The notes: generated from the letters alone by a model not told the origin. A DNA stretch of 32,000 nucleotides from Halalkalibacterium halodurans (GCF_004376175.1 NZ_SNUY01000036.1:1-32000); one strand, 5' to 3'. Positions 306-18,718 are shown, counted from the first letter of the stretch. A program made the numbers and translations.

Positions 306-1589
306 CTAAGCAGCATTCTGTATTTGTTGCAAGCGGATGTGTCCGAGACATTTTTCTCCATTGTAAGACACACGCTTGTGTCCTAAGCTAAATAACACGC
401 GAATCAACTTACAGCACAACGCGATCATGGATTGTTGTTTTTTCAACGGATTCTCGGAGCGTGTCGTTAAGTACTCATGCATTTGCTTGAACTCCCGATT
501 CTTCGCCACCATGGGGCGTATCGCTGCATACAACAGGGATCTCAGTTTGGGGCGTCCCCGCTTGGTAATGCGGGTTTGACCTCTGAACTTGCCTGAGGTA
601 TTTTCTCGCAGATTGAATCCTGCCAGTTTTTGAACCTGTCGTGGGTGCGTGTAGTTGGACAGATCGCCAACCTCAGCCAGGAAGCCAGCCACTGTCACTA
701 GTCCCACGCCTGGAATACTCATCATGTAGGGCACAGCTGGAATCTGCTCTAGTAATGCTTCTACATCTTGCATGAGCTGTTCCATTTGTCCACACAAACA
801 CTGGTATTGTTCCATCAAGCTTTGGAGTTCTTGCCTAGCCATTGACAGACCTTCCGTAAGACCAACAGAACGCTTGGCGGCCGCCACAAGCGCATTGGCT
901 CGCTTGATCCCTATGGCTCGTTTCACTTCTTGCTTCCAGTGTCTTAGGATCTTTTCCGCACCCAGATTGATGATTTCTTGCGGGAGAGGAAACGCCTCTA
1001 GCGTCATCAGTGCAGCCTTTCCTTCCCAAATCTTAAACACCTCATGAAATTCAGGGAAAAAGCGATCCAGCCAGTTGAGAATACGCCCCCGAACGCGTTG
1101 TAAGTCTTCTTGTAGACGGTCTCGCAGGTTCATCCCATTACGTAATTCAGCATATATGCCAGTGGGGACTTGGGGTTCAGAGTACCGTCCGTCTTTGACC
1201 AATTGAGCGATGACTCGGGCATCCTTTACATCATTTTTGGTGGGCGAATTGTCATCTAATTCCTTGCTCTTCTTCACATGCATCGGATTGACGACAACAT
1301 ACTTAATCCCTTCATGGCGCAGAAACTGGGCAAATGCCATCCAGTAATGCCCTGTGGGCTCAAAACCTACAATGACATCCGGTTTGGCATGTTCTCGCAT
1401 GAGGCTCTTCATCCACAAACGAAATCGTTGAAATCCGGCTCTGCTGTTTTCAATGTTCATTGGCTTGCCAAATTCAATTCCTCTGGCATCTTGAGCTCTA
1501 GCCACATGGTTCTCCTTGGCGATATCCACGCCAATAACGAGTGTTGATTCGGTGATTTGCTTGATTTTGTGATTTTGGTTATACTTCAT
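306..1589 (-). CDS. IS110-family DEDD transposase/recombinase
   Basis: 427-aa ORF. The N-terminal RuvC-like DEDD motifs are VIGVDIAK, FEPTGHYW and TKNDVKDA. The C-terminal Transposase_20-type region is IPGVGLVTVAGFLAEVGD...NTSGKFRGQTRITKRGRPKLR. A GAAGGAGG Shine-Dalgarno lies 7 nt upstream of the ATG. Confidence 0.93.
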   Translation of the reverse strand: MKYNQNHKIKQITESTLVIGVDIAKENHVARAQDARGIEFGKPMNIENSRAGFQRFRLWMKSLMREHAKPDVIVGFEPTGHYWMAFAQFLRHEGIKYVVVNPMHVKKSKELDDNSPTKNDVKDARVIAQLVKDGRYSEPQVPTGIYAELRNGMNLRDRLQEDLQRVRGRILNWLDRFFPEFHEVFKIWEGKAALMTLEAFPLPQEIINLGAEKILRHWKQEVKRAIGIKRANALVAAAKRSVGLTEGLSMARQELQSLMEQYQCLCGQMEQLMQDVEALLEQIPAVPYMMSIPGVGLVTVAGFLAEVGDLSNYTHPRQVQKLAGFNLRENTSGKFRGQTRITKRGRPKLRSLLYAAIRPMVAKNREFKQMHEYLTTRSENPLKKQQSMIALCCKLIRVLFSLGHKRVSYNGEKCLGHIRLQQIQNAA

Positions 1590-1770: not shown

Positions 1771-2649
1771 TTAATAATTTGGTAACTTAATTTTCTTTCC
1801 AAATATATCATCCGCTTTTGGAAGTATGTTTGAATATAATGCTGCGCCAGGAGTAAAGGTAAGTTCTCCGAATATTACTTTTCCACTATTTAAATAAAAG
1901 TCTACTCTTACAAATGGAAAAGGTTTTGATAATATTTCTGCGTATTCAAACATCTTGTCTATACCCTCGGGCTTTTCTACCAAATAATCATTTGGACTTT
2001 CAATGCTATCAGAAGTATAGTCCAGTAGCTTCCAATCCCTATTAAAAAAGAAAAGTCTCGGCTTTCCTTTTTCGCGATCTAAGCAGACCATCACACAATC
2101 GGGTTTACCATTAAAACAATACAGTTTATAATCAGCAGGCAATTTGCCATCATGAGTTTCAATAAATTTTTCACAAATAATTTTCTTATCGATAAATTTA
2201 TAATTGAGCTCCGCTCTCTTTTTCCAATAATCTTCTTTTAACCAATTATTTAATTTCCTTTTTGCTTCATCAATATTAAAATTCTTTTTGTCTTGACATA
2301 TGAGGTTATACCCTGCACCATGATTACACTTTAAAACAAATTTATCAGGTAATTTATCCCATTCTATTTCTTCCGTATTATCCCAACACCCGATTAACTC
2401 ATTTAATATTTCCTCGTAACCTAATTCTTTAATATAATTTCTAACTTTATATTTATCTGCACAAGTAGTGATTAATGGGTTATTATAATAACTATTAAGT
2501 TTTAACCACATTAATTTTTCATTCAAAGTTTTAGGATTTTTCAAATCTAACTTTTTCCCAAAAGCGGAACGATATAAGATTTTACTTGTGACCTTTGGCG
2601 AAATTGTGCTTAATATTTCCCTAATCATAGGCTTAATCTTAACTGACAT
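1771..2649 (-). CDS. TupA-like ATP-grasp fold amidoligase (teichuronopeptide TupA family)
   Basis: 292-aa ORF with the family's typical N-terminus (LDLKNPKTLNEKLMWLKL...) and core (KFVLKCNHGAGYN, DYKLYCFNGKP, VRVDFY, FGELTFTPG). It is the last gene of the AT-rich cassette. Confidence 0.75.
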   Translation of the reverse strand: MSVKIKPMIREILSTISPKVTSKILYRSAFGKKLDLKNPKTLNEKLMWLKLNSYYNNPLITTCADKYKVRNYIKELGYEEILNELIGCWDNTEEIEWDKLPDKFVLKCNHGAGYNLICQDKKNFNIDEAKRKLNNWLKEDYWKKRAELNYKFIDKKIICEKFIETHDGKLPADYKLYCFNGKPDCVMVCLDREKGKPRLFFFNRDWKLLDYTSDSIESPNDYLVEKPEGIDKMFEYAEILSKPFPFVRVDFYLNSGKVIFGELTFTPGAALYSNILPKADDIFGKKIKLPNY

Positions 2650-2757
2650 TTTTATTCATCTCCAAGAATTTATCTTTGAATAATACAACATAAAGTTTAA
2701 ACAACTTACTTAACTTACTTTCATTTTAACTGGTAATTAATCACCAGTTATCTTAGT

Positions 2758-4053
2758 TTATATTCCTTTATTAAAACCCTTACTAATATTTAAAGTATAT
2801 AAAATTAAAACTAAGTTTAATAAGGCACTCATGATACCAAAAAAAGCAACTGCAACTAGGTCACTAGAAAATACAAAATAACCAGTAGCTAAAGCGCCTA
2901 ATCGAAGCAGAATTGATATTACTGAATATTTAAGAAAAAATAATTGTGCGGATAATACAGGTATTGCAGCAACACTAGGCCTATTCATAAAACCAATATA
3001 GGACCATATTGCTAACCAACGAGTGTATTCCCCCGCAACTTCCCAGCCAGCACCAAATATTAACCCGAATATATACGGAGAAAAGACTACTATTATTCCA
3101 AACGGGATTAACCCAATAACACCTAGTGCCAATGTAGACTTTTTTATTAGAGCATAAAGATTCTCTCCATTTTTAGAGGCCTCAGAAATTCTGGGATAAA
3201 AAACATCTGTTACTGATTTACCTAATAATTGCGATGGTGCTGAAAGGACTGTCTTTCCTAATGAATAAAATCCAGCAGAAGCTGGACCAAAAAAACTTGT
3301 TAACATAAGTATAGGAAGACCTTGTGAAATTGCATTTAATAAAACCTCAGGGGCTCTAAATAAAGGAAAATCTTTGTGTTCCTTTGCTAATTTTTTTATA
3401 CTAACTTCTGGATCCTCATCTTGAACAACATGAGTTGTAGACTGGGGAGAGCGTTTCACGAAAATTATCATCATTACTGGTTTTAATATTTGACCAATTA
3501 CAGTAATTATTATTAAAACTGCAGCTATTGGGTTTATAAGTCCTATCCCTACCTTGCTTCCTTGTATAAAAATAGCCTGTAGAAAAGTTACCTTTGCTGT
3601 CACCTTAAATTGTTTTTTTCGAATCAACCATTGTTCTGTAACTTGTAGTACCCCAGAGAAAACAATAACTATTGGAATAAGAAATAAAAAAGAAGAAATA
3701 GCTTCTAAATTAAATAACTGTACAATGGATTGATGGAATGTTAATAAAAATAATGCTGTGATTATTGCAATAATTAAAGAAATGTAAATTGAAAGTCTCA
3801 CTATGCCTTTGGCTTCATTATCACTCCTTGGTAGTACAATAGCTATTGGATAGGTGAGTGTAGCTATCGGAACAATTATCGCTATTACCGCTGTAAATAC
3901 CCCTAGTAATCCAAAAGCTTCAGGGCCATACAGTCGAGTTATTATTGGAGATAAAATTATTGTTACAAATTGTGCAGCTGCAGTCCCGGTCGCAACAATA
4001 ATTACATTGCGAACGAATGTTTTCTTTATTAATTTTGCCACTAAACTTTTCAT
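2758..4053 (-). CDS. Wzx-type polysaccharide flippase (MOP/polysaccharide biosynthesis protein family)
   Basis: Polytopic membrane ORF. I place the start at the second Met (MKSLVAKLIKK), which is preceded by AAGGAGAACCGG. The ORF-track start at 4083 has no RBS. Confidence 0.8.
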   Translation of the reverse strand: MKSLVAKLIKKTFVRNVIIVATGTAAAQFVTIILSPIITRLYGPEAFGLLGVFTAVIAIIVPIATLTYPIAIVLPRSDNEAKGIVRLSIYISLIIAIITALFLLTFHQSIVQLFNLEAISSFLFLIPIVIVFSGVLQVTEQWLIRKKQFKVTAKVTFLQAIFIQGSKVGIGLINPIAAVLIIITVIGQILKPVMMIIFVKRSPQSTTHVVQDEDPEVSIKKLAKEHKDFPLFRAPEVLLNAISQGLPILMLTSFFGPASAGFYSLGKTVLSAPSQLLGKSVTDVFYPRISEASKNGENLYALIKKSTLALGVIGLIPFGIIVVFSPYIFGLIFGAGWEVAGEYTRWLAIWSYIGFMNRPSVAAIPVLSAQLFFLKYSVISILLRLGALATGYFVFSSDLVAVAFFGIMSALLNLVLILYTLNISKGFNKGI

Positions 4054-4113
4054 CCGGTTCTCCTTCAAAAAATAAAACAACACATTAGATTACTTTGAAA
4101 TGAAACGTTTTTT

Positions 4114-5289
4114 TTATACAATCCCACTTAAGATTTCTCTGTATAATTTCTTGTACTTTTGAATATTTATTCTATATCCAAACAAACTATGATAACGATT
4201 GTAAAAATACTCTTTTGATTCTATTAACTTTTCTCTACTATTCATTATTGAGTCAACTATATTCACAGCTTCCTCAGCTGTATTAAAAATATATTGTTTA
4301 TTGCCTATAACTTCCGATAGCCCATCTACTCCCGTTCCAATTACAGCATTTTTTCTGGCCATTGCTTCCACAGCTGTTCTACCAAAAGATTCCCACTTCG
4401 AAGTTAATATAAAGCAATCCATTGCATAATATAATTCAGCCATCTCTTTGTTAGTAATATCAATAAAGCTTAAAATTTTATTGCTTCCCACTTTACCTTT
4501 TAAGCTATCTATATATTCAGTAGCATCTTTATAATTTTGTTGAGTCCCATCGGATCCTAATACAATTATAAATTTTATATTTGTATCTTTAGCATATGTT
4601 TCTATTATTTCCTTAGTCAAAGGCCAATTTTTTTGTTCATTGTATCTGCCACAAAAACCCACAACAAATTGCTTCTCTTTTATATGATATTTCGCTCTAA
4701 TTTCTTTACTCTTTTCATCAACATAACTATCAAATATTTTACCAGCTGTATTATAAATTACTTCAAACTTCCTTGAGTGCTTTTCATAATCTTTGTATAA
4801 TTCTGTATAATTATTTTTATTAACGTAGGTAGTTGTCACAATCTTATTTGCCTTTTTAATGATACTGTTAACTGATAGTGTTGTTATTTTTCCATATTTC
4901 CCATAAACACCCCTATCTGTATAGACTATTTCCACATTTTTACTTAAAAGTCCAATTGAAAATAATAAGTTTAGTAATACTAGCGTAGAAGGCATTTGAA
5001 CGTGAATAATATCAGGGTTTACTTTCTTTATTTCATTTGATAAATCCTTTGTTAAATTCATTAACTCTAATGGCCCTTTCCCCCTAACGATAAAATCTTT
5101 ATAAACATTTAACACTCTATGTCGTTTATTAATTTGTTTTCCGCTAGGTCCTATCAAATAAAACTCAAAAGATTCACCTAATTCCTCCATTAGTATTTTC
5201 ATTGACTCCTGAGCTCCACCTGGAGTTGAGATATCTACATCACTTAAAAACAATATTTTAGGGATAGTCACATGTATTTTTCCTTTCAC
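4114..5289 (-). CDS. GT4-family (GT-B) glycosyltransferase
   Basis: 391 aa. The C-terminal EX7E-type motif region is LTSKWESFGRTAVEAMARKNAVIGT. The N-terminus KILFLSDVDISTPGGAQ is typical of GT4. The start is GTG and the RBS is weak. Confidence 0.8.
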   Translation of the reverse strand: MKGKIHVTIPKILFLSDVDISTPGGAQESMKILMEELGESFEFYLIGPSGKQINKRHRVLNVYKDFIVRGKGPLELMNLTKDLSNEIKKVNPDIIHVQMPSTLVLLNLLFSIGLLSKNVEIVYTDRGVYGKYGKITTLSVNSIIKKANKIVTTTYVNKNNYTELYKDYEKHSRKFEVIYNTAGKIFDSYVDEKSKEIRAKYHIKEKQFVVGFCGRYNEQKNWPLTKEIIETYAKDTNIKFIIVLGSDGTQQNYKDATEYIDSLKGKVGSNKILSFIDITNKEMAELYYAMDCFILTSKWESFGRTAVEAMARKNAVIGTGVDGLSEVIGNKQYIFNTAEEAVNIVDSIMNSREKLIESKEYFYNRYHSLFGYRINIQKYKKLYREILSGIV

Positions 5290-5337
5290 TTTAAGATTAC
5301 CTTGTTTTCAACCTATATTTAAACGTTAAACAACTTA

Positions 5338-6534
5338 CTAACCTGATGCATTTGGCATCCTTAATTTATATTGATTTATTTTGTTATGACATGAATATAA
5401 AATTATAAGGGTAACAAAAATCCAATACCCTGCGCCTAAATATCCACCCCTTTGGAAATTTAGTGCAATAAATACCAGTGCTAATTTAGGATTAAGGTAA
5501 ATTAACCAACCATTAAATAATAGAAATAAAAGAAAACTCACTAATCCTAAATCGGATAAAATATACGCATACACATTAAATAAGGTTGGCGTATTCCCGA
5601 TTCCATTACCTAAAAATAAGTTATCCCAATTGACATAAGACCAACTTCCTTGAAGTCTTGCAGTACCAGAACCATCAGTACCAGATAATATTTCTTGCGT
5701 TCGTATAATTACCGTTTTCTCTACTGTATCCCAAAACAAACCTATAAGAATTATAGCTAGCATAAAGGAAATAACACTTCTCTTTTTCTTAATAAAAGAA
5801 ATGAAATTCGACCAGCCGAAATAGTGTAATAATTTAATTCCAGCCATTATTAGTATAGAACTGTATGAGAAAGTAAGAAGTACAGTTAGTGTTATAATAA
5901 AATCATGAGATTTTTTAATTTTATAATTTGACCTAGTGAAATAAAGAATTGCTAGAATTGTGTTTAAGTAAAAACCTAAATAAGCCGGTTCTCCAAATAC
6001 ACTTCTTGTTCGAATTATACTTCTATCCCACCCTCTATACGTGTAACTTTCTAGGTCTTGACGATTAAATTGCCAAAAAAATTCATATGGAAAAATTCCA
6101 TTTAGATATAATGATATGGTAATGTAAATTCCAATAAAGGAAACAATTACAGCAGTTACAGATAGTGTATCCAAAAGGTTTTCTTCCAATTTTTTTTTCC
6201 TAACAAAATTAAATATTAGTATCATAGTCATCAAATAAAAAGCAATTTTGAAAAATCCTTGAGCACTTTCATAAAAGAGAAAATTACTATTAAAAAATAA
6301 ATTCATTAATATATTTGTTAATAATAAAAGGGGCAGCAGGACCAAAAATAATAATTGACTTTTTTGAAAAAACATATTTTTATTTGTAATGTAGTATAAT
6401 AATAAAAGCAAAAATATTGCGATTAGAAATAAATCAGAAAATCTCATTATTCCTAAACGCCAATCAACTAATATAAAAGCTATGCTAAATAGTACTAATA
6501 TAACTTGTTCAAAACTAACTTTTTTTATCTTCAT
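5338..6534 (-). CDS. Wzy-like repeat-unit polymerase / O-antigen ligase family membrane protein
   Basis: 398 aa, about 10 or more hydrophobic segments, very AT-rich. It sits between glycosyltransferases in a Wzx-containing cluster. Confidence 0.65.
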   Translation of the reverse strand: MKIKKVSFEQVILVLFSIAFILVDWRLGIMRFSDLFLIAIFLLLLLYYITNKNMFFQKSQLLFLVLLPLLLLTNILMNLFFNSNFLFYESAQGFFKIAFYLMTMILIFNFVRKKKLEENLLDTLSVTAVIVSFIGIYITISLYLNGIFPYEFFWQFNRQDLESYTYRGWDRSIIRTRSVFGEPAYLGFYLNTILAILYFTRSNYKIKKSHDFIITLTVLLTFSYSSILIMAGIKLLHYFGWSNFISFIKKKRSVISFMLAIILIGLFWDTVEKTVIIRTQEILSGTDGSGTARLQGSWSYVNWDNLFLGNGIGNTPTLFNVYAYILSDLGLVSFLLFLLFNGWLIYLNPKLALVFIALNFQRGGYLGAGYWIFVTLIILYSCHNKINQYKLRMPNASG

Positions 6535-6559
6535 AAAGAGTACCTACTTATATTTTAAT

Positions 6560-7354
6560 CTAATTTCTTCGAAGAAAATCCTTCCTACCTTTAATCATTT
6601 GTTTTAAAGCACTAACTGTATCTATTTGTTGAGAGTATAACGGCCTTTTTCGCAACAAAAACTGAATTATTAGTAAGAAGGATAATAAGTTACCACCAAT
6701 AGCTTGAAAAAGAGCCCCTCTATCATAAAAATACTTTTCGCTATAACCTGAGAACCAACTTGAGGTACCTTCTTCAATTTCTGCAATTACAGCCGTATTA
6801 GAATAGATTTTTATTCCCTTTTTTAAGCTGTTTGTGATAAATAAGCTGTCTTCACCACTTCCATATCGAGTACCACCACCAAATAAAAGAGAGAAAAACA
6901 AATTTGCTTTTAGAATTGCCTCTCTCCTAAACGCTATATTTACAGTACCGTACTTTAAACTGTTATAAAAACGTACTTTTCCATTTTTTTTTACTTTGAC
7001 TATTTTTTTGCCATCTTTTCGGTTAATTGGGACATTAAACATAATCATTTCTGCGTTAGGGTTTTCTTCAAATGCCTTAGCTACAATCTCTTGATAATTA
7101 TCTACATAAACCATATCATCATCTGCCATTAGGCATATATCAGCATTAGATCTCATCAATGCGCTATTTCGGCTTTTGCCTACTCCTCGCTCATTAAATG
7201 AAAACATACGTATCAAACTGCCATTTAACTTAGATTCAATGTAGTCATGTCTATTAGACTGATTAATAATAATTGCATCACTTGTTATATTCATCTTATC
7301 AACTATACTGAGATCATTTTGATCCATAGTTGATACAAGCACTTCTATTTTCAT
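6560..7354 (-). CDS. GT2-like (GT-A fold) glycosyltransferase
   Basis: 264 aa. A DXD-type motif occurs in CLMADDDMVYVD. The N-terminal beta-alpha pattern (MKIEVLVSTMDQ) is as in small capsule glycosyltransferases. Confidence 0.7.
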   Translation of the reverse strand: MKIEVLVSTMDQNDLSIVDKMNITSDAIIINQSNRHDYIESKLNGSLIRMFSFNERGVGKSRNSALMRSNADICLMADDDMVYVDNYQEIVAKAFEENPNAEMIMFNVPINRKDGKKIVKVKKNGKVRFYNSLKYGTVNIAFRREAILKANLFFSLLFGGGTRYGSGEDSLFITNSLKKGIKIYSNTAVIAEIEEGTSSWFSGYSEKYFYDRGALFQAIGGNLLSFLLIIQFLLRKRPLYSQQIDTVSALKQMIKGRKDFLRRN

Positions 7355-7390
7355 TTTATAACAGCATCCCCATAATTAAGTTTTTATTTT

Positions 7391-8557
7391 TCACCTCGTA
7401 CTCTCAGCCTTCTCCCAAAATGGCTTCGCCTTGCCAGTTAAAATGTTATAAACGCCAACCCATTGTGCAATTATTGTAATACAGTAATAATATATTAGAT
7501 TTAAATACTTATTATCTGTTTTAGTTACCGCTCTCGTAAGAGCCAATAGATAAAAGAAAAGCTGACCAATAAATGTCACCGTATAAAACAATGACTCTCC
7601 TAATAAGAATGCATTTGAAATTAATACTAATAGATGCGCGATCCATAATAAATACCTACACGTTCTATGACCAAAATAAAAGTATGAAAACCATTTATAC
7701 TTGAAAACATTTAGTAATCGCATATCTGGAAAAATCGCCTTTAATATAGTACGATTCATTCGCACTTTCCTTCCGAACTCATCCTCAATAACCTCTCCGG
7801 CTTTTTCATAAGCAATTGCATCATGATTACATATCGCACGTTTTCCCTCAAGTGAGTAATACAAAGGCATAGAAGCATCATGGCAGTTAATTGGATTAAA
7901 ATCGTAATAATTTTTGGTTCTACACGCATAAAGAGCTCCGTTCCCTGCTGTAATTGAATGTAACCTACCTTCAATTTCACGTATTGCCAGGTCACTGTCC
8001 CAATAACTTGCTTCAGAATTACTCACATCACTTACATCTTTATTAGTAATTAATAACCTACCTGAAACATAAGCTATATCATCTGAAGTAAACGTAGCTA
8101 CTAGTTCTTTTACCGAATTCTTATCCATCATTGAATTAGCATCAGTCATTACAAGATACTCACTAGTTACAGTTTTATGTGCTTCATTCTGGGCATTCGT
8201 CTTTCCTTTTCTTGATTTTACCTCATACAGTCTTATACTATATTCTTTATACTCAGAAATAAACTTCCTTACAATTTCATTAGTCTTATCCGTACTGTTA
8301 TCTGATGCGATTAAAAACTCAATTTTGTCTTTAGGATAGTCAAGCTCTATTATATTATGAAGCTTTTTCGCAATTACTTTTTCTTCATTATGGGCAACTA
8401 CCATAACAGTAACTGTTGGTTGTAGGGAGAAGTCTTTTTTTAGTTTATCTACCTTATGGAATTTTCCAATTATCTTTATAGATAATGGATAACCAACCAT
8501 CGCCCAAAATATAATAAACCCACTTATATAAAATAGTATTTTAAATAGTAATTCCAT
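7391..8557 (-). CDS. Membrane-embedded GT2 glycosyltransferase (N-terminal TM, GT-A domain, C-terminal TM bundle)
   Basis: 388 aa. Recognisable segments are VTVMVVAHNEEKVIAKKLHNI, ASDNSTDKT and VMTDANSMMD. The C-terminus has 3-4 hydrophobic helices. The position of the QxxRW motif reads RKVRM. Confidence 0.75.
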   Translation of the reverse strand: MELLFKILFYISGFIIFWAMVGYPLSIKIIGKFHKVDKLKKDFSLQPTVTVMVVAHNEEKVIAKKLHNIIELDYPKDKIEFLIASDNSTDKTNEIVRKFISEYKEYSIRLYEVKSRKGKTNAQNEAHKTVTSEYLVMTDANSMMDKNSVKELVATFTSDDIAYVSGRLLITNKDVSDVSNSEASYWDSDLAIREIEGRLHSITAGNGALYACRTKNYYDFNPINCHDASMPLYYSLEGKRAICNHDAIAYEKAGEVIEDEFGRKVRMNRTILKAIFPDMRLLNVFKYKWFSYFYFGHRTCRYLLWIAHLLVLISNAFLLGESLFYTVTFIGQLFFYLLALTRAVTKTDNKYLNLIYYYCITIIAQWVGVYNILTGKAKPFWEKAESTR

Positions 8558-8596
8558 ATTTTCTCCTTTAATCCATCTAATTTAAAAGTAAATTAT

Positions 8597-9655
8597 TTAA
8601 GCTCTGTAGATAGGAAAAAATAAAGAACTATTATCAAATAAATCTTCCTTACTTCGAATTTGAACTAGCTCCTCATACCTTTTTTCATTAAAAATTTTCC
8701 TACCTACTGCAAAAGTACTATTTGAGTTTCTATTAAATGCTTTCTTAAATTTATAAAGACTGTCTTCTTTGCTACCTAGTCCGCCACCTAAATGAAAATA
8801 CTTATACCCATTCTCGCATCCCCAACACGCTGCCTCATATAATAATAAATTTGTCGCTGCTAAGTGGTTATATTCTTTATCTGATGCCGACAAATGATAA
8901 TGGATTTGTTCGTTACAAAATAAAATCATTGACATTGCTATAATTCTTTCCTCATACACTGCATAAAAAATCATTGAGTTATACTTTAAGTCATTTAGGA
9001 CACTATTATAAAATTCCATGTCAAAATAGTAATACTCATTGGCCTTGTCTTTTGCCATTGTGAGGTTATACATATCGATAAAACGTTCAATTAGCACCCT
9101 ATCTCTTCCCCAGTAAATCGAAACACCTAATTTTTTTGCCTTCCTAATTACATTTCTATTTTTACTGGTAATGTCATTCCATATTTGTTGTTTAGAGCAT
9201 AAATTCATTGTAATGGTTTTTCCAAGCAATGAAATATCATAAACATTTTCCAAATACTCACTATTATTAAGAACAGGGTGAAAGCGAACAAACTCACTAA
9301 CTATTCCTCTTTGATTACAAATTAAAGCATATTCATCATTTAACTTGATTAAGTCGTCATTATCTACATTTCCTTCTATTAAAAACCCCCCATAACCATA
9401 TGGAGTTGAAATATCATAATAGGTGCCCACAGACAATTCACCAGTAAACTTTATGTCATTAGCTACATCTCTTACCATAACAACATTAATAGCTTTAAAA
9501 TCTTTACCTTCATAATAAAAAAGCGTTGGTTCTCCATCACCATGGATTGCAAATGCCTTTGTATAGCTAGAAAGGTAATAAACATCATACTCTTTAAAAC
9601 CCTTAACTATCTCATCCCATTTTTCTTCTTCACTGAGAGTAATTACTGATAGCAT
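8597..9655 (-). CDS. FemAB-fold / GNAT-like (Acetyltransf_6-type) aminoacyl or acyl transferase
   Basis: 352 aa. The TPYGYGGF motif and tandem GNAT-like halves resemble proteins annotated as peptidoglycan bridge formation FemA/FemB family in polysaccharide loci. Confidence 0.6.
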   Translation of the reverse strand: MLSVITLSEEEKWDEIVKGFKEYDVYYLSSYTKAFAIHGDGEPTLFYYEGKDFKAINVVMVRDVANDIKFTGELSVGTYYDISTPYGYGGFLIEGNVDNDDLIKLNDEYALICNQRGIVSEFVRFHPVLNNSEYLENVYDISLLGKTITMNLCSKQQIWNDITSKNRNVIRKAKKLGVSIYWGRDRVLIERFIDMYNLTMAKDKANEYYYFDMEFYNSVLNDLKYNSMIFYAVYEERIIAMSMILFCNEQIHYHLSASDKEYNHLAATNLLLYEAACWGCENGYKYFHLGGGLGSKEDSLYKFKKAFNRNSNSTFAVGRKIFNEKRYEELVQIRSKEDLFDNSSLFFPIYRA

Positions 9656-9664
9656 TTAATCCTC

Positions 9665-10132
9665 CTAGAATACTTTTTTCATATAACGTCTTTCTGTAAT
9701 AAAGCCCATAGAATTATACATTCTAACAGCTTCTTTATTAACTTCAGACACATTTAAGTCAATAGTACTAATTTTATGTTTTTTCGCAACCTGTTCAGCT
9801 TGTTTCATTAATCTTCTTCCGATCCCTTTACCCCTAAATTTATTGGAAACAATAATTTGATTAATGTGAAGACGAGATTCCCCAAAAAATTCATGTTTGT
9901 ATAACCATAAGAATCCTACTAATCTTTCATCTTCATAAGTACCTATCAAAATTGCTGTTTTTTGATTAATATAATTTGGTATCAAGTTTAGCTTTTCTTT
10001 ACACAAGCTAATACTTTGTTCTTTTGAAATGCCGAAGTTTTCAATATATGTTTCTGTTAATAAGTCTAAGATAGCATCCTTACATTTTAAGAATTCTTCA
10101 TTATCCAATTCTTTAACTATCAAAGCGTTCAC
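9665..10132 (-). CDS. GNAT-family N-acetyltransferase
   Basis: 155 aa. The acetyl-CoA binding motif is IIVSNKFRGKGIGRRLM. Its start overlaps the end of the upstream sugar transferase gene by 20 nt. Confidence 0.85.
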   Translation of the reverse strand: MNALIVKELDNEEFLKCKDAILDLLTETYIENFGISKEQSISLCKEKLNLIPNYINQKTAILIGTYEDERLVGFLWLYKHEFFGESRLHINQIIVSNKFRGKGIGRRLMKQAEQVAKKHKISTIDLNVSEVNKEAVRMYNSMGFITERRYMKKVF

Positions 10133-10757
10133 CTCTATCTACATCTAAATCCTTTAAAGGACCCCTATCAACAACAGTTACGCCTTCTCTTATAAAAGCT
10201 TTAATTACTGTTTTAAAAATAATTTCTAAGTCTAATAGAAAAGTAATATTATTCACGTACTCTACATCAGCTGCTAATCTATTATCCCAATTCAGATTAT
10301 TCCTACCATTTATCTGCGCAAGTCCAGAAAGACCTGGTCGAACAGTATGCCTTATCCTTTCAGTCTCAGTATAATAAGGCAAATACCTGACTAATAGAGG
10401 TCTAGGCCCAATAATAGACATATCGCCTTTTAGAATATTGAATAGTCCCGGTAACTCATCAAGAGATGTAGAACGAAGGAACTTACCAAACTTCGTTAAT
10501 CTAACACTATCAGGTAATAACTCCCCATTTTCATCTCTCTCATCGGACATTGTTCTAAATTTATACATTGTGAAGATTTTTTCATTAAGACCAGGCCTAT
10601 CTTGTTTAAATAATACTGGACTTCCCAACTTTGTTTTTACAAGTAATGCAACTACTAACAGAATAGGACTCAAAAATATAATAGCTAATAAAGCCAAAGT
10701 AAAGTCCATCGGCCTCTTTATAAACCTTCTATATATACCACTTTTAGAATGCTCCAT
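10113..10757 (-). CDS. Small monotopic phosphoglycosyl transferase (bacterial sugar transferase; PglC/EpsL-like)
   Basis: 214 aa. It has one N-terminal re-entrant helix, the motifs KFRTM and LDELPGLFNILKGDMSIIGPRP, and the conserved C-terminal region. Confidence 0.88.
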   Translation of the reverse strand: MEHSKSGIYRRFIKRPMDFTLALLAIIFLSPILLVVALLVKTKLGSPVLFKQDRPGLNEKIFTMYKFRTMSDERDENGELLPDSVRLTKFGKFLRSTSLDELPGLFNILKGDMSIIGPRPLLVRYLPYYTETERIRHTVRPGLSGLAQINGRNNLNWDNRLAADVEYVNNITFLLDLEIIFKTVIKAFIREGVTVVDRGPLKDLDVDRGERFDS

Positions 10758-10761
10758 AAAC

Positions 10762-11886
10762 TCACCACAATCCTTTTATAATTTCTACAATTTTCGCCAA
10801 GTCAGCATCTGTCATCTTAGTATCCGACGGCAAACAAACACCATTCTCAAACAACTTTTCTGATACATCAGTTCCAACAAATTCATACTTCTCAAAGAAA
10901 GGCTGCATATGCATTGGCTTCCAAACCGGTCTTGACTCGATATTTTCAGCTTCCAATGCTTCAAATATATCAATTGGTCTCACTTTACCAGTCAACGTCA
11001 TTGAGCTTAACCAGTAATTCGGTGCATCCCATTCATTGCTAGGCATAAACTGGACTCCTTCAAGCTCACCAAGTTCTCTCTTATAAAATTCATAGATATA
11101 ATTCTTCTTTTCTACACGTTGATCTAAAACTTTTAACTGCCCTCTACCAATACCAGCAACCACATTGCTCATACGGTAATTAAACCCTAATTCACTATGT
11201 TGATAGTGCCTTGCCTGATCTCTTGATTGAGTTGCCCAAAATTTTGCCTTGGCAATTCTTTCTTCATTATCAGAAACAAGCATTCCACCACCAGAAGTAG
11301 TGATGATTTTGTTCCCATTAAAAGAGAAGATGCCATAATCGCCAAATGTTCCAGTATGCTTACCTTTATAGTAAGTACCTAAACTTTCAGCAGCATCTTC
11401 TATTAAAACAACATTATGTTTCTTACAAAGGTCTACTATTCTATCCATATCTGCTGATAATCCATAAAGGTGAACTACGATGACTGCCTTTACCTCAGGA
11501 TACTTTTGAAGAGCTTCTTCTAAAGCTTCCGGGCACATATTCCATGTTTCATAATTACTATCTATAAATACTGGAACAGCATTTTGATAGATAATTGGAT
11601 TAGCTGTTGCTGAGAATGTAAGTGTTGGGCAGAATACGATATCCCCTTCACCAACTCCCGCAGCTCGCAAAGCTAAGTGAATAGCTGCCGTCCCAGAAGT
11701 AAGTGCTGCTGCTGCTTTAGAGCCAACCTTTTCTGATAACTCTCTTTCAAATCCATTTACGTTTTCTCCAAGAGGAGCGATCCAGTTTGTATCGAATGCT
11801 TCCTTTACATATTCCATTTCATAACCTTCATCACTCATATGGGGTGATGAAAGAAAAATTCTTTCGTTCACTTTTGTTATCTCCAT
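10762..11886 (-). CDS. DegT/DnrJ/EryC1/StrS-family PLP-dependent sugar aminotransferase (EpsN/PglE-like)
   Basis: 374 aa. Motifs are SSGTAAIHLAL-type and FSFNGNKIITTSGGGML (PLP lysine region). This is the intact copy. Confidence 0.9.
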   Translation of the reverse strand: MEITKVNERIFLSSPHMSDEGYEMEYVKEAFDTNWIAPLGENVNGFERELSEKVGSKAAAALTSGTAAIHLALRAAGVGEGDIVFCPTLTFSATANPIIYQNAVPVFIDSNYETWNMCPEALEEALQKYPEVKAVIVVHLYGLSADMDRIVDLCKKHNVVLIEDAAESLGTYYKGKHTGTFGDYGIFSFNGNKIITTSGGGMLVSDNEERIAKAKFWATQSRDQARHYQHSELGFNYRMSNVVAGIGRGQLKVLDQRVEKKNYIYEFYKRELGELEGVQFMPSNEWDAPNYWLSSMTLTGKVRPIDIFEALEAENIESRPVWKPMHMQPFFEKYEFVGTDVSEKLFENGVCLPSDTKMTDADLAKIVEIIKGLW

Positions 11887-12084
11887 CCTATAGACTTCCT
11901 TCCATCGTTAAGTTAATATTTTAGTAGATTAGGACTTACTTGGAATCTTCAAAACTAATTACTCCAACCAACTTCTAAACCACTAAATTGGTTATCTACT
12001 TCTGATACCCACCTCGCATTTAATATTCAATATGCGATATACATGAAAAGATCAATATATTATGTTTATGTGTTACAAAACACT

Positions 12085-12110
12085 AACAACCACTATATAC
12101 CGTGGTTGTT
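12085..12110. terminator. Perfect 9-bp hairpin inside the junction between the two aminotransferase copies
   Basis: AACAACCAC (12085-12093) pairs with GTGGTTGTT (12102-12110) around an 8-nt loop. T-rich sequence follows on the minus strand (AGTGTTTTGT). Confidence 0.35.
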
Positions 12111-12127
12111 ATTTGATTCAAATACCC

Positions 12128-13054
12128 ACCTCGTTCTAATGCTTCAATCACATCAATCGGTCTAACTTACCCTGTCAATGTGATTGCACTTAGCCAATAA
12201 TTAGGTTTGTCCCATTCATTTTCAGGCATAAATTCAATACTGTCTAGCTCACTTAATGCTTTTTTGTAATACTTATAAATGTACCTTTTTTTCTCTACCC
12301 TTTCATCTAATATCTTCAATTGTCCTCTACCGATTCCAGCAACAACGTTACTCATACGGTAATTAAATCCGAGTTCGCTATGTTCATAATGTCTTGCTTG
12401 ATCTCTACTTTGTGTAGCCCAAAATCTTGCCTTTTCAATTCTTCCTTCTTGATCGGAAACCAACATACCACCACCAGAGGTAGTGATAATTTTATTTCCA
12501 TTAAATGAAAAAATCCCGTAGTCTCCGAATGTCCCTGTATGTTTTCCTTTATAATAAGTGCCCAACGATTCTGCTGCATCCTCAATCAGAGCAACATTAT
12601 GTTTTTTACATAATTCTACAATTGAATCTATATCTGCTGATAATCCATAGAGATGAACCACAATAACTGCCTTAACTTCGGGATACTTTTCAAATGCCTC
12701 TTCTAATGCTTTCGGGCACATATTCCATGTTTTATAGTCACTATCTATAAAGACCGGAATTGCATTTTGATAGATAATCGGGTTTGCTGTAGCTGAGAAG
12801 GTTAATGTAGAACAAAAGACAACATCTCCATCACTTACACCTGCTGCCTTTAAAGCTAAATGGATCGCTGCTGTACCTGAGGATAATGCGGCGCCAGCTT
12901 TTGCTCCGACTTTTTCAGCCAATTCTTTTTCGAACATATTGACATTGTTACCGAGTGGTGCAATCCAGTTTGTATCAAAAGCTTCTTTTACATACGCCAT
13001 TTCATAACCTTCATCACTCATATGTGGTGATGATAGGAATATTCTCTCTCCCAT
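12128..13054 (-). pseudogene. Truncated paralogue of the DegT-type aminotransferase (N-terminal ~295 codons, then a frameshift, then loss of homology)
   Basis: By hand count there are 44 differences in about 291 aligned residues versus 10762-11886, roughly 85% identity. A 1-nt loss creates the stop at 12167. The shifted frame still reads VRPIDVIEALE (intact copy: VRPIDIFEALE). Similarity ends near 12128. The last ~70 codons are absent. Confidence 0.85.
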
Positions 13055-13219: not shown

Positions 13220-14101
13220 TTAAAAGTTAACCTTCTTCTGTTCGAGGATTGCTTCTAGAAAGCGGGCAAACTCGTCCTTGATCGCCTCATCGTGTAAGGC
13301 GAATTCGACGGTTGTTTTCACAAATCCAATCTTCTCACCAACGTCGTAGCGTTTGCCTTCGAAGTCATAGGCGTACACATGTTGGATTTCGTTAAGGCGC
13401 TCGATGGCATCGGTTAATTGAATTTCTCCGCCTGCCCCTGTTTCATGGCGCTCCAAAAACGTGAAGATTTCTGGCGTTAACACGTAGCGTCCCATGATTG
13501 CTAAGTTGGATGGGGCAGTTCCCGGCTTTGGCTTCTCGACAAACTGCTTGACTGTATACGTTCGTCCCTTTTGGTCGATCGGGTCGACAATGCCGTAGCG
13601 ATGGGTTTTATGGTCGGGGACGGTCTGTACACCGATGACCGATGACTCTGTTTGTTCGTATTGATCGATCAGTTGTTTTAAGCACGGGGTTTCCGCTTGA
13701 ACGATATCGTCCCCTAATAAGACGGCAAACGGCTCGTCGCCGATAAATTTCCGTGCACACCAGACGGCATGTCCGAGTCCTTTTGGCTCTTTTTGCCGAA
13801 TGTAATGGATATCGACCTTTGTCGACTCGTTCACTTTTTCTAGTAAATCGTATTTTTCCTTTTCTGCGAGCGTTTGTTCAAGCTCAAAGGAATGATCGAA
13901 ATGATCTTCAATCGCTCGCTTGCCTTTTCCGGTGACGATAATAATGTCTTCAATGCCTGATGAGATCGCTTCTTCGACAATGTATTGAATCGTCGGCTTG
14001 TCTACGATTGGGAGCATTTCTTTTGGCATCGCTTTGGTGGCAGGGAGAAATCGCGTCCCTAGCCCGGCTGCTGGAATAATCGCTTTTCTGATTTTCTTCA
14101 C
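13220..14101 (-). CDS. galU: UTP-glucose-1-phosphate uridylyltransferase
   Basis: 293 aa. The N-terminus [40 protein letters not shown] is diagnostic of GalU/GtaB. Confidence 0.95.
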
Positions 14102-14116
14102 GTTTCCACTCCTCTA

Positions 14117-15943
14117 TTATGCTGAACCGACGGTTGGGTTGCTTAGACCTAATGCCTCCACTCTGAAGTTGGCAATGTCGAGCAACTCTTCCCGTAATGC
14201 ATCTTTCTCTTTCTTTGCAAATTCGTCGGTCAATTGATAGATGACGTTAATTTCAATTGGTGGTGTCTTCCCGCGGTAAATCTTCGGATAGACTTGCTCG
14301 CTGTGGACTTCATTTTCCCCGAGCAATTCTTCAAATAGTTTTTCTCCTGGTCTCATGCCGGTAAAGACAATCGGAATCTCGTCCTCCGTATAGCCTGACA
14401 GACGAATGAGATTGCGAGCCAGGTCGACAATTTTCACAGGCTCCCCCATATCGAGGACAAACACCTCGCCTCCGTCAGCAAGCGCTCCCGCTTGGAGAAC
14501 GAGACGGGAAGCTTCTGGAATGGTCATGAAATAGCGGACCATTTCTGGATCCGTGACGGTCACAGGGCCACCTTTTTGGATCTGCTTCTTAAATAAAGGG
14601 ATGACGCTGCCGCGACTACCGAGGACGTTTCCGAAACGTACAGCGACGAAGCGGGTGTCACTAATCATGTCCATATGTTGAATGATCATTTCCGCGATTC
14701 GTTTCGTAGCTCCCATTACGCTTGTCGGGTTGACTGCTTTATCGGTCGAGATCATCACAAAGGTGTTGACGTTCGCCGCACTTGCCGCCTCCGCAGTGTT
14801 CTTCGTGCCGAGCACATTGTTTTTCACTGCCTCCTCAGGATTTCGTTCCATGAGCGGAACATGCTTGTGTGCTGCTGCATGGAAGACAACGTGGGGCTTC
14901 CGATCGTCCATGATTGAAAACATTTTCTCACGATCCTGAATATCTGCGATCTCGGTGACGATATTGATGTTAGGGAGCTTGTCCCGTAATTCCATTTCAA
15001 TGGAGTATATGCTGTTTTCGCCATGACCGAGAAGGACGAGTGTCTCCGGTTGGAAACAAGCGATTTGCCGACAAATTTCTGACCCGATGGAACCGCCCGC
15101 CCCAGTGACGAGCACCGTTCGATTTGTAATGTATTGAGCAATCCCATTGATATCGAGCTCGACAGGATCTCTACCTAGTAAATCCTCTACTTCTACATCC
15201 CGGAACTGAGCAACCTCCACTCTTCCCATCATGATATCTTCAATTTTCGGGAGAATTTGCGTTTTTACTTTTGTTTTCGAGCAGACGTGAAAAATATCAT
15301 TCAGCTCTACCCGGCTCAACGATGGGATGGCAATTATAATATGTTCAATGCTATGTTCTGCAACAATCCCTTCCATGTCCTTAACGGCGCCTAAAACAGG
15401 AATGCCCATGATCTCTAGATTGTGCTTACTAATATCATCATCCACGAAAGCCACTGGGCGCAGCTCCGCTTCTTGGTTTTGTAACAACTGACGAGCAACC
15501 ATCGACCCAGCCGAACCTGCTCCGATGATCAGTGTCTTCGTTTTATTAAGCTTTGGCTTCATATATGTATCTCTGTAAAGTCGCCAAGAAAAGCGCGATC
15601 CCCCGATCAGTAGCATGTGCATCATCCACGTCGTAAAGAGCGTCCGGACATATACCGTTTGGAAAAATAATAGTTGAACGACGGCCACCGTAAGGATCGA
15701 AAATGTAACAGCCATGATGATTGCTTTTAATTCGTTCATGCTTGCATACTGCCATACTCGCTTGTACAGCTTTAGTTTTTGCGCAAAGAAATGATGGCTG
15801 GCTAGCAGCGTAACAGAGCTAACAAACAATATACTCGAGAATGTGCCACTTGAAAACATAAGAAAATTGCAGACATAAATCGAAAACATCACAATCACCG
15901 AGTCATTTGTCGCGAGCAAAGCAATCCTTTTTTTATATGACAT
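14117..15943 (-). CDS. Membrane-anchored CapD/EpsC/PglF-type nucleotide-sugar 4,6-dehydratase (polysaccharide biosynthesis protein CapD family)
   Basis: N-terminal TM helices are followed by two Rossmann-like regions (IIGAGSAGSMV, VTGAGGSIGSE) and then STDKAVNPTSVMGATKR. I place the start at MSYKKR (ATG 15943), which has AGGAGGTG 5 nt upstream. The ORF-track start at 16153 runs through hairpins and has no RBS. Confidence 0.9.
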   Translation of the reverse strand: MSYKKRIALLATNDSVIVMFSIYVCNFLMFSSGTFSSILFVSSVTLLASHHFFAQKLKLYKRVWQYASMNELKAIIMAVTFSILTVAVVQLLFFQTVYVRTLFTTWMMHMLLIGGSRFSWRLYRDTYMKPKLNKTKTLIIGAGSAGSMVARQLLQNQEAELRPVAFVDDDISKHNLEIMGIPVLGAVKDMEGIVAEHSIEHIIIAIPSLSRVELNDIFHVCSKTKVKTQILPKIEDIMMGRVEVAQFRDVEVEDLLGRDPVELDINGIAQYITNRTVLVTGAGGSIGSEICRQIACFQPETLVLLGHGENSIYSIEMELRDKLPNINIVTEIADIQDREKMFSIMDDRKPHVVFHAAAHKHVPLMERNPEEAVKNNVLGTKNTAEAASAANVNTFVMISTDKAVNPTSVMGATKRIAEMIIQHMDMISDTRFVAVRFGNVLGSRGSVIPLFKKQIQKGGPVTVTDPEMVRYFMTIPEASRLVLQAGALADGGEVFVLDMGEPVKIVDLARNLIRLSGYTEDEIPIVFTGMRPGEKLFEELLGENEVHSEQVYPKIYRGKTPPIEINVIYQLTDEFAKKEKDALREELLDIANFRVEALGLSNPTVGSA

Positions 15944-16102: not shown

Positions 16103-16981
16103 ATTAATGCTTTTTTTCTTTCTCTCTATGAAAATAAAATAAACATGAGGCATTGAACCTCACCTCACGCCACATCAATGACAACGGACGCGTCTAAGGT
16201 CATCGCTGATTGACGACCCACAACATGGCCGAGTGCCTCCGTCGATAAAGGTAAGGAGACATTACCTTCGTACACTTAGAACCTATAATAATAGATTAAT
16301 CGGCTAATTTGGGAGAAAAGTGAAGGGAACTTGCAGACAGATAGAAATTTCTCTTAAAAAAAGACCCTTTCTACTTCACTGCGTTAAATTGTCGATGGTT
16401 ATATGTAAATTCTGAAGATTTTCCCAACCTCTGTCGTACATTGCAATAATAACAATTTTCAATAGGGGAGTAAAGATGAAAAATATAGATTATTCATAAC
16501 CGTCCCATTTTTTTGGAACGGTATTTATCATCTTCTCCTAATGACGCTGTTTTTGTCAAATATACAAACGTTTATAAAAAGAAACATTACTAATATCTTA
16601 TACGAATTGTACAGCTTTTGTACAGAATTGATCGGAAATTCCTATTCTTTGCCAATTTGCAAGCTTTTTCATATAGTAGAATGACCAATGGCTGAAGGAA
16701 GATAGACACTTTCATATCGGTTTAATCTTTTTTTAAAAAAGGCGCACATACTGGGCACATCATGAAAATACTCAGAGTAGACGTTACTTAATCTTTTCGA
16801 TTATCACACGTTTCTTACGATTAAAATGAGGATAATCAAATGAAGAGGAATGCGTACCATAAAAAAGACCGTGGTGTTCCAGCAACAGCGACCTAGGAAT
16901 AAAAGGTTCCTAAGCAATAAATAGGGTATGCCAAAAACGATATATCCTTTTAAATTTCTTAGTATCATTTCCTCCTACAGT

Positions 16982-17024
16982 GTATATACTATGTATATAC
17001 AATAATAAAATGAGGGGTTATAAT
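16982..17024 (+). promoter_or_regulatory. mazEF promoter with overlapping double-palindrome operator
   Basis: The palindrome GTATATAC occurs twice (16982-16989 and 16993-17000), 3 nt apart. The -35-like TATACA lies at 16996-17001, followed by a 17-nt spacer and a perfect TATAAT at 17019-17024. Confidence 0.5.
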
Positions 17025-17055
17025 GAATGTAGATGAAAATAAAGGAGTGACACTC

Positions 17056-17292
17056 ATGACTACTATACAAAAGTGGGGAAATAGTTTAGCTGTTCGTATT
17101 CCGAACCATTATGCTAAACATATTAACGTTACGCAAGGATCTGAAATTGAACTAAGTTTAGGGAGTGATCAAACGATTATTTTAAAGCCTAAAAAAAGAA
17201 AGCCAACATTAGAGGAATTAGTGGCAAAAATCACTCCTGAAAATAGACATAACGAAATTGATTTCGGGAGAACAGGAAAGGAATTGTTGTAA
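17056..17292 (+). CDS. mazE: MazE-type antitoxin (AbrB/SpoVT-fold)
   Basis: MTTIQKWGNSLAVRIPNHYAK...LEELVAKITPENRHNEIDFG parallels E. coli MazE (KRWGNSPAVRIP...[20 protein letters not shown], recalled from memory). I place the start at the second Met, behind AAAGGAGTG. The ORF-track ATG at 17023 falls inside the -10 box. Confidence 0.88.
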   Translation: MTTIQKWGNSLAVRIPNHYAKHINVTQGSEIELSLGSDQTIILKPKKRKPTLEELVAKITPENRHNEIDFGRTGKELL

Positions 17293-18706: not shown

Positions 18707-18718
18707 ATCTTTCTTCTC

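Follow-up and report, generated by a model that had tools for sequence, protein, structure and literature searches.

The DNA analysed here is a 32-kb stretch from the draft genome of one strain of Halalkalibacterium halodurans (NZ_SNUY01000036.1:1-32000), which we call the window. Its left part carries a glycan cassette of ten open reading frames (ORFs) on the minus strand, running co-directionally from 11886 down to 1771. Two of the products, a FemAB-fold (Fem-like) transferase and a TupA-like ligase, are the main subject of this work. No internal stop was found in the ten ORFs (0/10), and neighbouring ORFs overlap by up to 20 nt or stand up to 108 nt apart. Ordinary chromosomal genes make up the right half of the window: kdgRKA, an rbs operon, tetR, fabZ and flagellar rod genes.

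Genes were assigned by Pfam and NCBIfam profile searches of the window proteins with curated cut-offs. The cassette contains the following genes:

1771-2649, minus strand: TupA-like ATP-grasp amidoligase, the last cassette gene (TES53593.1 and WP_134229697.1, identical); ATPgrasp_TupA
2758-4083, minus strand: Wzx-type flippase; Polysacc_synt_3, E 9.4e-23, about 11 hydrophobic segments
4114-5289, minus strand: GT4 glycosyltransferase; Glycos_transf_1, E 5.1e-19, and Glyco_transf_4
5338-6534, minus strand: putative Wzy polymerase, from its 9-10 hydrophobic segments and its position
6560-7354, minus strand: small GT2-like glycosyltransferase; Glycos_transf_2, weak (24.7 bits, cut-off 23.3)
7391-8557, minus strand: membrane-anchored GT2 glycosyltransferase; Glycos_transf_2, E 2.4e-19, three hydrophobic segments
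8597-9655, minus strand: FemAB-fold transferase (TES53598.1 and WP_134229702.1, identical); Acetyltransf_6 and FemAB
9665-10132, minus strand: small GNAT N-acetyltransferase; Acetyltransf_1, E 9.5e-20, with a 20-nt overlap with the next gene
10113-10757, minus strand: small PglC/EpsL-type phosphoglycosyl transferase (PGT), 214 aa; Bac_transf, E 1.1e-61
10762-11886, minus strand: DegT-family sugar 4-aminotransferase (EpsN/PglE/LegC-like), the first gene of the incoming cassette; DegT_DnrJ_EryC1, E 2.9e-100

Of the parts expected in a Wzx/Wzy cassette, the initiating PGT, Wzx, two GT2 enzymes and one GT4 enzyme are all present. A preliminary description of this DNA, made from its sequence, had named these functions. 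Profile hidden Markov models (HMMs) recovered the aminotransferase, PGT, GNAT, FemAB, glycosyltransferase, Wzx and TupA assignments, whereas the Wzy function is only inferred, as the 5338-6534 product had no match to Wzy_C or any other Pfam family even at E<=10. A homologue of this product (59% identical) holds the same position in locus L038. The small GT2 has homologues (61-63% identical) that come after a large GT2 in L001 and L038. The aminotransferase scored 390.9 bits against the LegC-family model (cut-off 420), and the families named nearest to the GNAT were RimI, PaiA and streptothricin acetyltransferase, all below cut-off.

The Fem-like protein matched two Pfam families, Acetyltransf_6 (PF13480; 53.2 bits, cut-off 22, E 4.7e-14) and FemAB (PF02388; 43.4 bits, cut-off 24, E 2.6e-11). 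Single-sequence searches of the PDB were uninformative and a family profile was needed. The profile of 24 members matched the crystal-structure sequences of FemX from Weissella viridescens with an E-value of 7e-10 (about 1e-9) over residues 163-333, which form domain 2. Tyr254 and the Phe304-Lys305 pair of this FemX correspond to Y253 and F303-K304 of the Fem-like protein, none of which varies among 24 homologues. In W. viridescens FemX, the catalytic role belongs to Lys305 (PMC12945691). The two proteins are also alike in their length of about 350 aa without a coiled-coil insert and in a domain 2 that begins with a basic helix, and a weak model of the Fem-like protein gave double-GNAT fold matches. 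In domain 1 no sequence similarity was detected, and FemX residues R211 and Y215, which bind UDP-MurNAc-pentapeptide, are replaced by the invariant F211 and F215. Thus, judged by the alignment and the model, the Fem-like protein looks like FemX on the donor side and unlike it on the acceptor side.

The AlphaFold2 model of the Fem-like protein was used for fold-level search alone. With this weak model, the top 11 Foldseek matches included W. viridescens FemX (8e-12), Sbb17/Sba18, and FemX and FemA of S. aureus, with E-values from 8e-12 to 1e-6 over about 290-420 columns. MprF and ATE1 were also matched, and the best matches were all aminoacyl-tRNA-dependent transferases. The FemAB-family assignment of the preliminary description was borne out by the HMMs, by the profile match to FemX sequences and by the fold search. 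We rejected the possibility that the protein is a genuine peptidoglycan FemX. Its gene sits in a glycan cassette and not with cell-wall synthesis as in the FemABX family, it scored 44.9 bits against the FemX equivalog model NF047883 (cut-off 500), and the acceptor residues R211/Y215 are lost. From the family and residue comparisons, it is probably an aminoacyl-tRNA-dependent N-aminoacyl transferase. No dedicated tRNA gene, as known for the staphylococcal Fem enzymes, was found in the window.

The Fem-like family is large and its sequences are strongly conserved. A word-indexed search returned 4339 matches at E<=1e-5, and 651 representatives of 50%-identity clusters matched at E<=1e-30. Identities are 50-74% for members found in Bacillaceae, Planococcus, Clostridia and Bacteroidales. 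In a scan of one genome per species, relatives were present in 450 species-representative genomes of Bacillota, Bacteroidota and other groups. The best match in that scan was only 65% identical, so the species representative of H. halodurans does not carry the Fem-like gene. The Fem-like and TupA-like proteins are both singleton clusters at 90% identity, found on one 40,827-bp H. halodurans contig.

To describe the context of the Fem-like gene, we used 83 loci from different species. The small PGT adjoins Fem in 75/83 loci, a DegT aminotransferase accompanies it in 69/83, and capD lies within 10 kb in 45/83. The large GT2 is adjacent in 18/83, and a small GNAT, including the type found in the window, in 15/83. 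The recurrent conserved unit is aminotransferase, PGT, Fem and, in part of the loci, GNAT. Other neighbours are a PIG-L deacetylase (9/83) and a sulfotransferase (5/83).

Two further neighbours are more frequent than the GNAT. A divergent DegT-like protein of about 355 aa, here called X, adjoins Fem in 51/83 loci (just upstream of Fem in, for example, L007, L010, L045 and L060). Its similarity to DegT aminotransferases is weak and confined to the C-terminus (E 2e-5 to 4e-3); in the PDB, PseC comes closest (E 0.002). A possible role of X is to generate a second amine or to alter the amino acid once it is attached. An ATP-grasp gene similar to L-amino-acid ligases (LAL; ATP-grasp_4, LAL_C2) stands beside Fem in 22/83 loci (e.g. 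L026, 11090-12310), which suggests that the attached amino acid of some Fem relatives is extended to a dipeptide. Fem proteins of GNAT-type and X-type loci have similar identities to the window protein (61-73% and 63-65%), and therefore the partner type defines no Fem subfamily at this resolution.

The slot after the PGT is filled differently in related loci. In the Neobacillus locus L006, which has no Fem, a PglD-like acetyltransferase follows the aminotransferase-PGT pair. On the mobilizable Priestia filamentosa plasmid CP136438.1 (L168, 35036-38448), the aminotransferase-PGT pair is 77.6% identical in DNA to that of the window, and an ATP-grasp gene and an HAD hydrolase gene fill the slot held by Fem in the window. 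It seems that different N-acylating enzymes are exchanged at this slot.

Natural fusions support a functional coupling of Fem to its partners. In P0242 a GNAT is fused to Fem in the order found in the window (GNAT then Fem), and its N-terminal domain is homologous to the window GNAT over the full length (32% identity, E 2e-24). Fem is fused to a GT2 in P0245 and to PglD-like LbH acetyltransferases in P0247, P0320 and P0334, whose LbH domains are not homologous to the GNAT. Tandem Fem-Fem proteins of up to 1060 aa were also found (P0255, P0306, P0322 and P0344).

The TupA-like protein (292 aa) matched PF14305 over the full profile (1-241 of 241) with 169.1 bits (cut-off 25, E 1.6e-49). Its AlphaFold2 model has a mean predicted local distance difference test (pLDDT) score of 90.4 and matched Ddl, PsnB, LysX/ArgX and RizA in Foldseek (E 3e-7 to 1e-5). 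The ATP-grasp residues K107, E160, D250 and E262 are invariant in 20 homologues. These results confirm the TupA-type assignment that had been made from the sequence. Members of the TupA family have been predicted to add amino acids to surface polysaccharides (PMC13419641), and the TupA-like domain of Cj1438 from C. jejuni amidates glucuronate in the capsule (PMC11800379). Like the C-terminal domain of Cj1438 and the predicted WemR of Proteus, the window protein belongs to PF14305, is encoded in a surface-polysaccharide locus and would have the same expected chemistry, an ATP-dependent amide formation on a sugar carboxylate. Unlike the Cj1438 domain, it stands alone and is not part of a glycosyltransferase fusion.

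Strain C-125 has tupA, after which this Pfam family is named, and teichuronopeptide (PMC8153356). The window strain is of the same species, and its TupA-like protein is of the same family. The query itself was the only protein bearing the name H. halodurans in the 120 best-matching homologues, whose identities went down to 51% and most of which carried no source name. The test of orthology is indirect, resting on naming among these 120 homologues. On this basis the window gene, a member of a strain-specific Wzx/Wzy cassette, is unlikely to be orthologous to C-125 tupA.

The preliminary description had paired the FemAB-fold and TupA-type enzymes, a pairing that did not hold. A TupA-like gene was present in 4/83 Fem-like loci, at 38-41% identity. 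Conversely, a Fem-like gene was present in 0/80 TupA-like loci, which were metagenome loci with homologues 46-59% identical. The closest TupA-like homologues (59-60% identical) are in Fem-less cassettes, directly after Wzx and beside an AlaDH-like gene and ugd. The closest Wzx-TupA pair was found in such a cassette of Virgibacillus (L005), where the Wzx preceding TupA is 58% identical to that of the window. We rejected Fem plus TupA as a conserved pair at this co-occurrence. Since co-occurrence is so rare, Fem and TupA are independent accessories joined by cassette shuffling. The TupA-like ligase is an already known kind of amidoligase that works independently of Fem.

An AlaDH-like neighbour was found in 16/80 TupA-like loci and ugd in 13/80; ugd is also nearby in the TupA-like loci L005 and L006. 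In the Fem-less glycan loci L005 (10001-13236), L091, L092, L095, L103, L113, L115, L125 and L130, a TupA-like ligase gene is grouped with genes for an AlaDH_PNT-like dehydrogenase and a UDP-sugar dehydrogenase. This triad may point to uronic acids that carry opine-type or amino-acid amides. In contrast to these relatives, the TupA-like gene of the window has no uronic-acid-forming or amine-forming partner nearby.

The cassette lies between an insertion sequence (IS) element and a conserved operon leader. The flanking features are as follows:

306-1589, minus strand: IS110-family transposase gene, intact, at the 3' border of the cassette; DEDD_Tnp_IS110, E 2.3e-33, and Transposase_20, E 3.7e-22
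11887-12166, no strand: non-coding junction with the last ~45 nt of pseudogene homology, a bidirectional hairpin at 12084-12111 and a 12-nt repeat
12167-13054, minus strand: truncated aminotransferase pseudogene, left as a scar by an earlier cassette; match to positions 7-279 of the 360 in the DegT profile, G+C at third codon positions (GC3) 0.27
13220-14101, minus strand: galU (UTP-glucose-1-phosphate uridylyltransferase), backbone; NTP_transferase, E 1e-38, G+C 0.474
14117-15943, minus strand: capD (EpsC/PglF-type membrane UDP-GlcNAc 4,6-dehydratase), backbone; Polysacc_synt_2, E 7e-126, and CoA_binding_3
16147-16267, minus strand: epsC/EAR RNA, processive-antitermination leader; Rfam RF01735, full length, 105.9 bits (gathering score 42), E 1.2e-17

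The G+C content of the cassette (1771-11886) is 0.314 compared with 0.468 for the backbone genes, and the GC3 is 0.21-0.29 compared with 0.45-0.52 for galU, capD, the kdg genes and a lacI-family regulator gene (22339-23358). The AT-rich block extends to 13054 and takes in the truncated aminotransferase gene. Ten tightly packed, co-directional and AT-rich genes had been described at this place, and both the ORF map and the composition agree with this. However, the G+C content of capD, given earlier as about 55%, is 45%, with a maximum of 49% in any 1-kb window. The cassette had also been called foreign. The singleton clusters and the lack of a close copy in the species scan support this independently. 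Variable glycan cassettes are typically AT-rich, and the low G+C alone does not prove a recent transfer.

The leader places the cassette in a known type of operon. In B. subtilis the EAR RNA precedes epsC and permits processive antitermination (PMC10653937). Here it precedes the capD start by about 200 nt. The true start of capD is most likely 15943 and not 16153, judging from the ribosome-binding site AGGAGGTG that precedes the ATG at 15943 and from the overlap with the EAR RNA that an ORF called from 16153 would have. The order capD-galU-aminotransferase recurs in L001, L007, L014, L019 and L038. An EAR leader followed by capD, galU and then a variable region indicates a native eps-type operon. 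Like epsA-O of B. subtilis, it combines the EAR leader, a membrane CapD/EpsC dehydratase, a DegT aminotransferase, a small PglC-type PGT, Wzx, Wzy and several glycosyltransferases within one long co-directional operon. Unlike epsA-O, it has a GNAT and a FemAB-fold protein in place of the EpsM/PglD-type LbH acetyltransferase, and a TupA-like ligase is added. Moreover, no epsA/epsB (Wzz, kinase) or pyruvyl transferase gene lies within the window, and the leader is directly upstream of capD, with no eps gene (such as epsA/epsB in B. subtilis) ahead of it.

Six-frame tblastn of the window with queries from related loci found no ugd, AlaDH, LytR, PglD, pyruvyl transferase, Wzz, CpsD or CpsB, and a PglD-like query gave no significant match for an EpsM/PglD-type LbH acetyltransferase (best E 6.2). 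The ugd, LCP ligase, Wzz and kinase genes may lie beyond the 32-kb window. As the window has no uronic-acid-forming enzyme, LCP ligase or chain-length regulator, it does not decide whether the product is a uronic acid amide, or whether it is a secondary cell-wall polymer rather than an exopolysaccharide (EPS).

The borders of the cassette show traces of earlier exchange. The pseudogene has a nonsense codon (AAA->TAA at codon 296) and about 80% DNA identity to the intact aminotransferase gene 10762-11886, with the homology lost abruptly near 12120. A recent tandem duplication of the aminotransferase gene was rejected on account of this low identity and the abrupt end. The pseudogene is the scar that an earlier, likewise AT-rich cassette left behind. 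An exact 12-nt direct repeat, ATACCCACCTCG, is present at 12005-12016 and 12122-12133 and brackets a 28-nt hairpin where the pseudogene homology stops. Two copies of this 12-mer occurred in 0/100 shuffles, and the repeat may be a footprint of recombination or insertion. At the other border, the IS110 gene has a backbone-like G+C content (0.478), and no coding remnant was recognised in window bases 1-305. Beyond the leader, we observed a second AT-rich islet at 16268-18718 (G+C 0.361), which separates the eps leader from the kdg operon. A mazE/mazF toxin-antitoxin pair lies in this islet on the plus strand (17023-17622), followed by about 1.1 kb without an ORF of at least 80 aa.

The cassette itself is a mosaic. 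By protein identity, the aminotransferase, PGT, GNAT and Fem-like proteins are closest to Bacillus tuaregi (89, 82, 63 and 73%), the two GT2 enzymes to Virgibacillus pantothenticus (76 and 63%), Wzy to Bacillus sp. Marseille-Q3570 (L038; 59%), and Wzx and TupA to a different V. pantothenticus cassette (58 and 60%). Megablast of the cassette against plasmids found only the 1.46-kb aminotransferase-PGT match at 77.6% identity. As a whole, the cassette is an ordinary strain-variable eps serotype block.

From the observed gene content, families, catalytic residues, synteny, fusions, scar and IS element, we infer every substrate and product of the following pathway. CapD and the DegT aminotransferase, as homologues of EpsC/EpsN and PglF/PglE, would make a UDP-2-acetamido-4-amino-2,4,6-trideoxyhexose. 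In B. subtilis, EpsC, EpsN and EpsM make UDP-di-N-acetylbacillosamine (UDP-diNAcBac), and the PGT EpsL loads the sugar onto undecaprenyl phosphate (PMC10653937). Here the Fem-like protein would replace PglD/EpsM and transfer an amino acid from aminoacyl-tRNA to the free amine of the sugar, either on the UDP-sugar or on the undecaprenyl-diphosphate-sugar. The amino acid itself cannot be predicted from sequence. The small GNAT would then acetylate the new alpha-amine to give an N-acetyl-aminoacyl amido sugar, although the order of steps could differ. The small PGT would load the modified sugar onto undecaprenyl phosphate, and the two GT2 enzymes and the GT4 enzyme would add three further sugars. 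The TupA-like ligase would amidate a carboxyl of the unit with an amine or amino acid in an ATP-dependent reaction; this carboxyl probably belongs to a uronic acid made by a dehydrogenase encoded elsewhere. Wzx would flip the unit, the multi-pass membrane protein (Wzy) would polymerise it, and the native leader (EAR RNA, capD and galU) would transcribe the cassette.

This pathway has precedents. N-acetyl-alanyl and N-acetylglycyl amido sugars occur in O-antigens (PMC3210612). Orf11 glycylates streptothrisamine from Gly-tRNA, an amino-sugar precedent for the Fem fold. The Fem-like protein resembles Orf11, Sbb17 and Sba18 as a Fem-fold enzyme that would form an amide on an amino-sugar scaffold, and the cassette GNAT is weakly similar to the streptothricin N-acetyltransferases, which acetylate the attached amino acid. 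The similarity to Orf11/Sbb17/Sba18 is marginal in sequence (E 0.32 with a single sequence, 4e-4 with a profile), and those enzymes belong to natural-product pathways of Streptomyces, whereas the product here would be a polymer repeat unit. The earlier prediction that the repeat unit is decorated with amino acids or amides stays the most reasonable one. In agreement with the earlier remark that no characterised pathway has this gene set, we found no paper describing it, and a literature search found no characterised Fem-like enzyme in polysaccharide loci. A review names a predicted alanyltransferase, Lea3, of E. coli O161.

We consider it somewhat better than an even bet that the region is a strain-specific, mosaic variable part of a Wzx/Wzy-dependent eps-type operon behind a native EAR-capD-galU leader, in which the initiating 4-amino sugar is aminoacylated in a tRNA-dependent step and then N-acetylated while TupA acts independently. 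Several points weigh against this. The best Pfam match of the Fem-like protein is the generic Acetyltransf_6, and its NCBI name is GNAT N-acetyltransferase. The family profile found no sequence match to FemX in its N-terminal domain 1, and its structural model, made with 24 close homologues, is weak (pLDDT 65, template modelling score about 0.42). The aminoacyl-tRNA activity of the family is a prediction from sequence relationship. The GNAT itself could be the 4-N-acetyltransferase, and the fusions of Fem to PglD-like domains also fit a 4-amine acetylation with Fem acting on another group. The census of acetyltransferase genes used few query sequences, so that divergent enzymes may be missed. 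Finally, the pathway is incomplete as seen, as the window lacks genes for Ugd, a pyruvyl transferase, an LCP ligase, Wzz and a tyrosine kinase, and the last cassette gene is adjoined by an IS110 element.

The first of these points bear on an alternative that we regard as rather unlikely. Here the GNAT is an ordinary 4-N-acetyltransferase and UDP-diNAcBac is made as in B. subtilis or Campylobacter, while Fem acts on another amine, on a hydroxyl to form an ester or on a later sugar, or uses acyl-CoA. Acetyltransf_6 as the top family would fit, as would the weak similarity of the GNAT to PseH and WecD (E ~5e-7). The PglD_N domain in the fusions P0247, P0320 and P0334 binds UDP-sugars, and X (51/83) or the PIG-L deacetylase (9/83) could expose other amines. 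However, the 58/83 Fem loci without a detectable GNAT or PglD-like gene would then leave the 4-amine bare. The nearest solved relatives of Fem, by sequence and by fold, are all aminoacyl-tRNA-dependent and the catalytic Phe-Lys pair is invariant. The stretch after the HYHLSAS strand, read by eye, has no R/Q-x-x-G-x-G/A motif for the acyl-CoA pyrophosphate, and neither does the aligned stretch of FemX. The better matches of the GNAT are amino-acid and amine acetyltransferases (RimI, PaiA and streptothricin acetyltransferase).

In a coupled model that goes back to the preliminary description, Fem, GNAT and TupA would jointly build a short peptide on one sugar of a teichuronopeptide-related, glycopeptide-like polymer. 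For example, Fem would add an acidic amino acid and TupA would extend its free carboxyl. The presence of three amide-forming enzymes in one operon agrees with this model, and with no uronic-acid source in the window a side-chain carboxyl could serve TupA. The LAL-like ATP-grasp genes beside Fem (22/83) and the tandem Fem-Fem fusions are peptide-building contexts, and C-125 produces teichuronopeptide (PMC8153356). The model is nevertheless improbable in our judgement, given the co-occurrence of TupA-like and Fem-like genes in only 4/83 and 0/80 loci and the position of the closest TupA homologues in Fem-less cassettes by Wzx, the AlaDH-like gene and ugd. Furthermore, the ATP-grasp genes that accompany Fem belong to another family (ATP-grasp_4/LAL), and the TupA-like protein is probably not a tupA orthologue.

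Equally doubtful is a decaying or silent remnant, in which the IS110 insertion and recombination removed ugd, the LCP ligase and the chain-length regulator so that the polymer is absent or truncated; the IS110 gene directly 3' of the TupA-like gene, the pseudogene scar and terminator-like hairpins 5' of the cassette, the lack of ugd, LytR, Wzz and CpsD in the window and the presence of ugd and lytR after the cassette in related Virgibacillus loci agree with it, but 10/10 ORFs are intact with tight or overlapping spacing, an EAR leader reads through internal terminators (PMC10653937), and the genes not found may sit outside the 32-kb window.

We tentatively propose, at a little under even chances, that the whole Fem-like family consists of aminoacyl-tRNA-dependent transferases that replace PglD/EpsM and place an amino acid on the initiating bacillosamine-type sugar. 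Interchangeable partners (a GNAT, an LbH enzyme, a LAL ATP-grasp enzyme, a second Fem or the divergent pyridoxal phosphate-type enzyme X) would cap or extend this amino acid. As far as we found, the Fem-like module is a widespread and apparently uncharacterised, predicted replacement for the N-acetylation of bacillosamine-type sugars.

Amino-acid-acylated amino sugars, such as N-acetyl-alanyl and N-acetylglycyl quinovosamines, are common in surface antigens, and in the literature searchable here no proven enzyme is named for adding the amino acid to such sugars. If the module is an ordinary acyl-CoA transferase, the locus is merely another eps serotype variant. For this alkaliphile, the cassette is evidence that charged surface polymers, to which a part in pH homeostasis is ascribed, vary from strain to strain. 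If the proposal is true, the N-aminoacyl and N-peptidyl amido sugars of glycans would have a general, tRNA-dependent way of being made, and translation substrates would be tied to capsule and EPS synthesis outside peptidoglycan. Hundreds of glycan-locus genes annotated as "GNAT/FemX" would gain a function, and polymer structures could be predicted better from capsule and EPS clusters, among them those of gut Clostridia and Bacteroidales. The module would also form a new connection between the tRNA pool and the chemistry of the cell surface.

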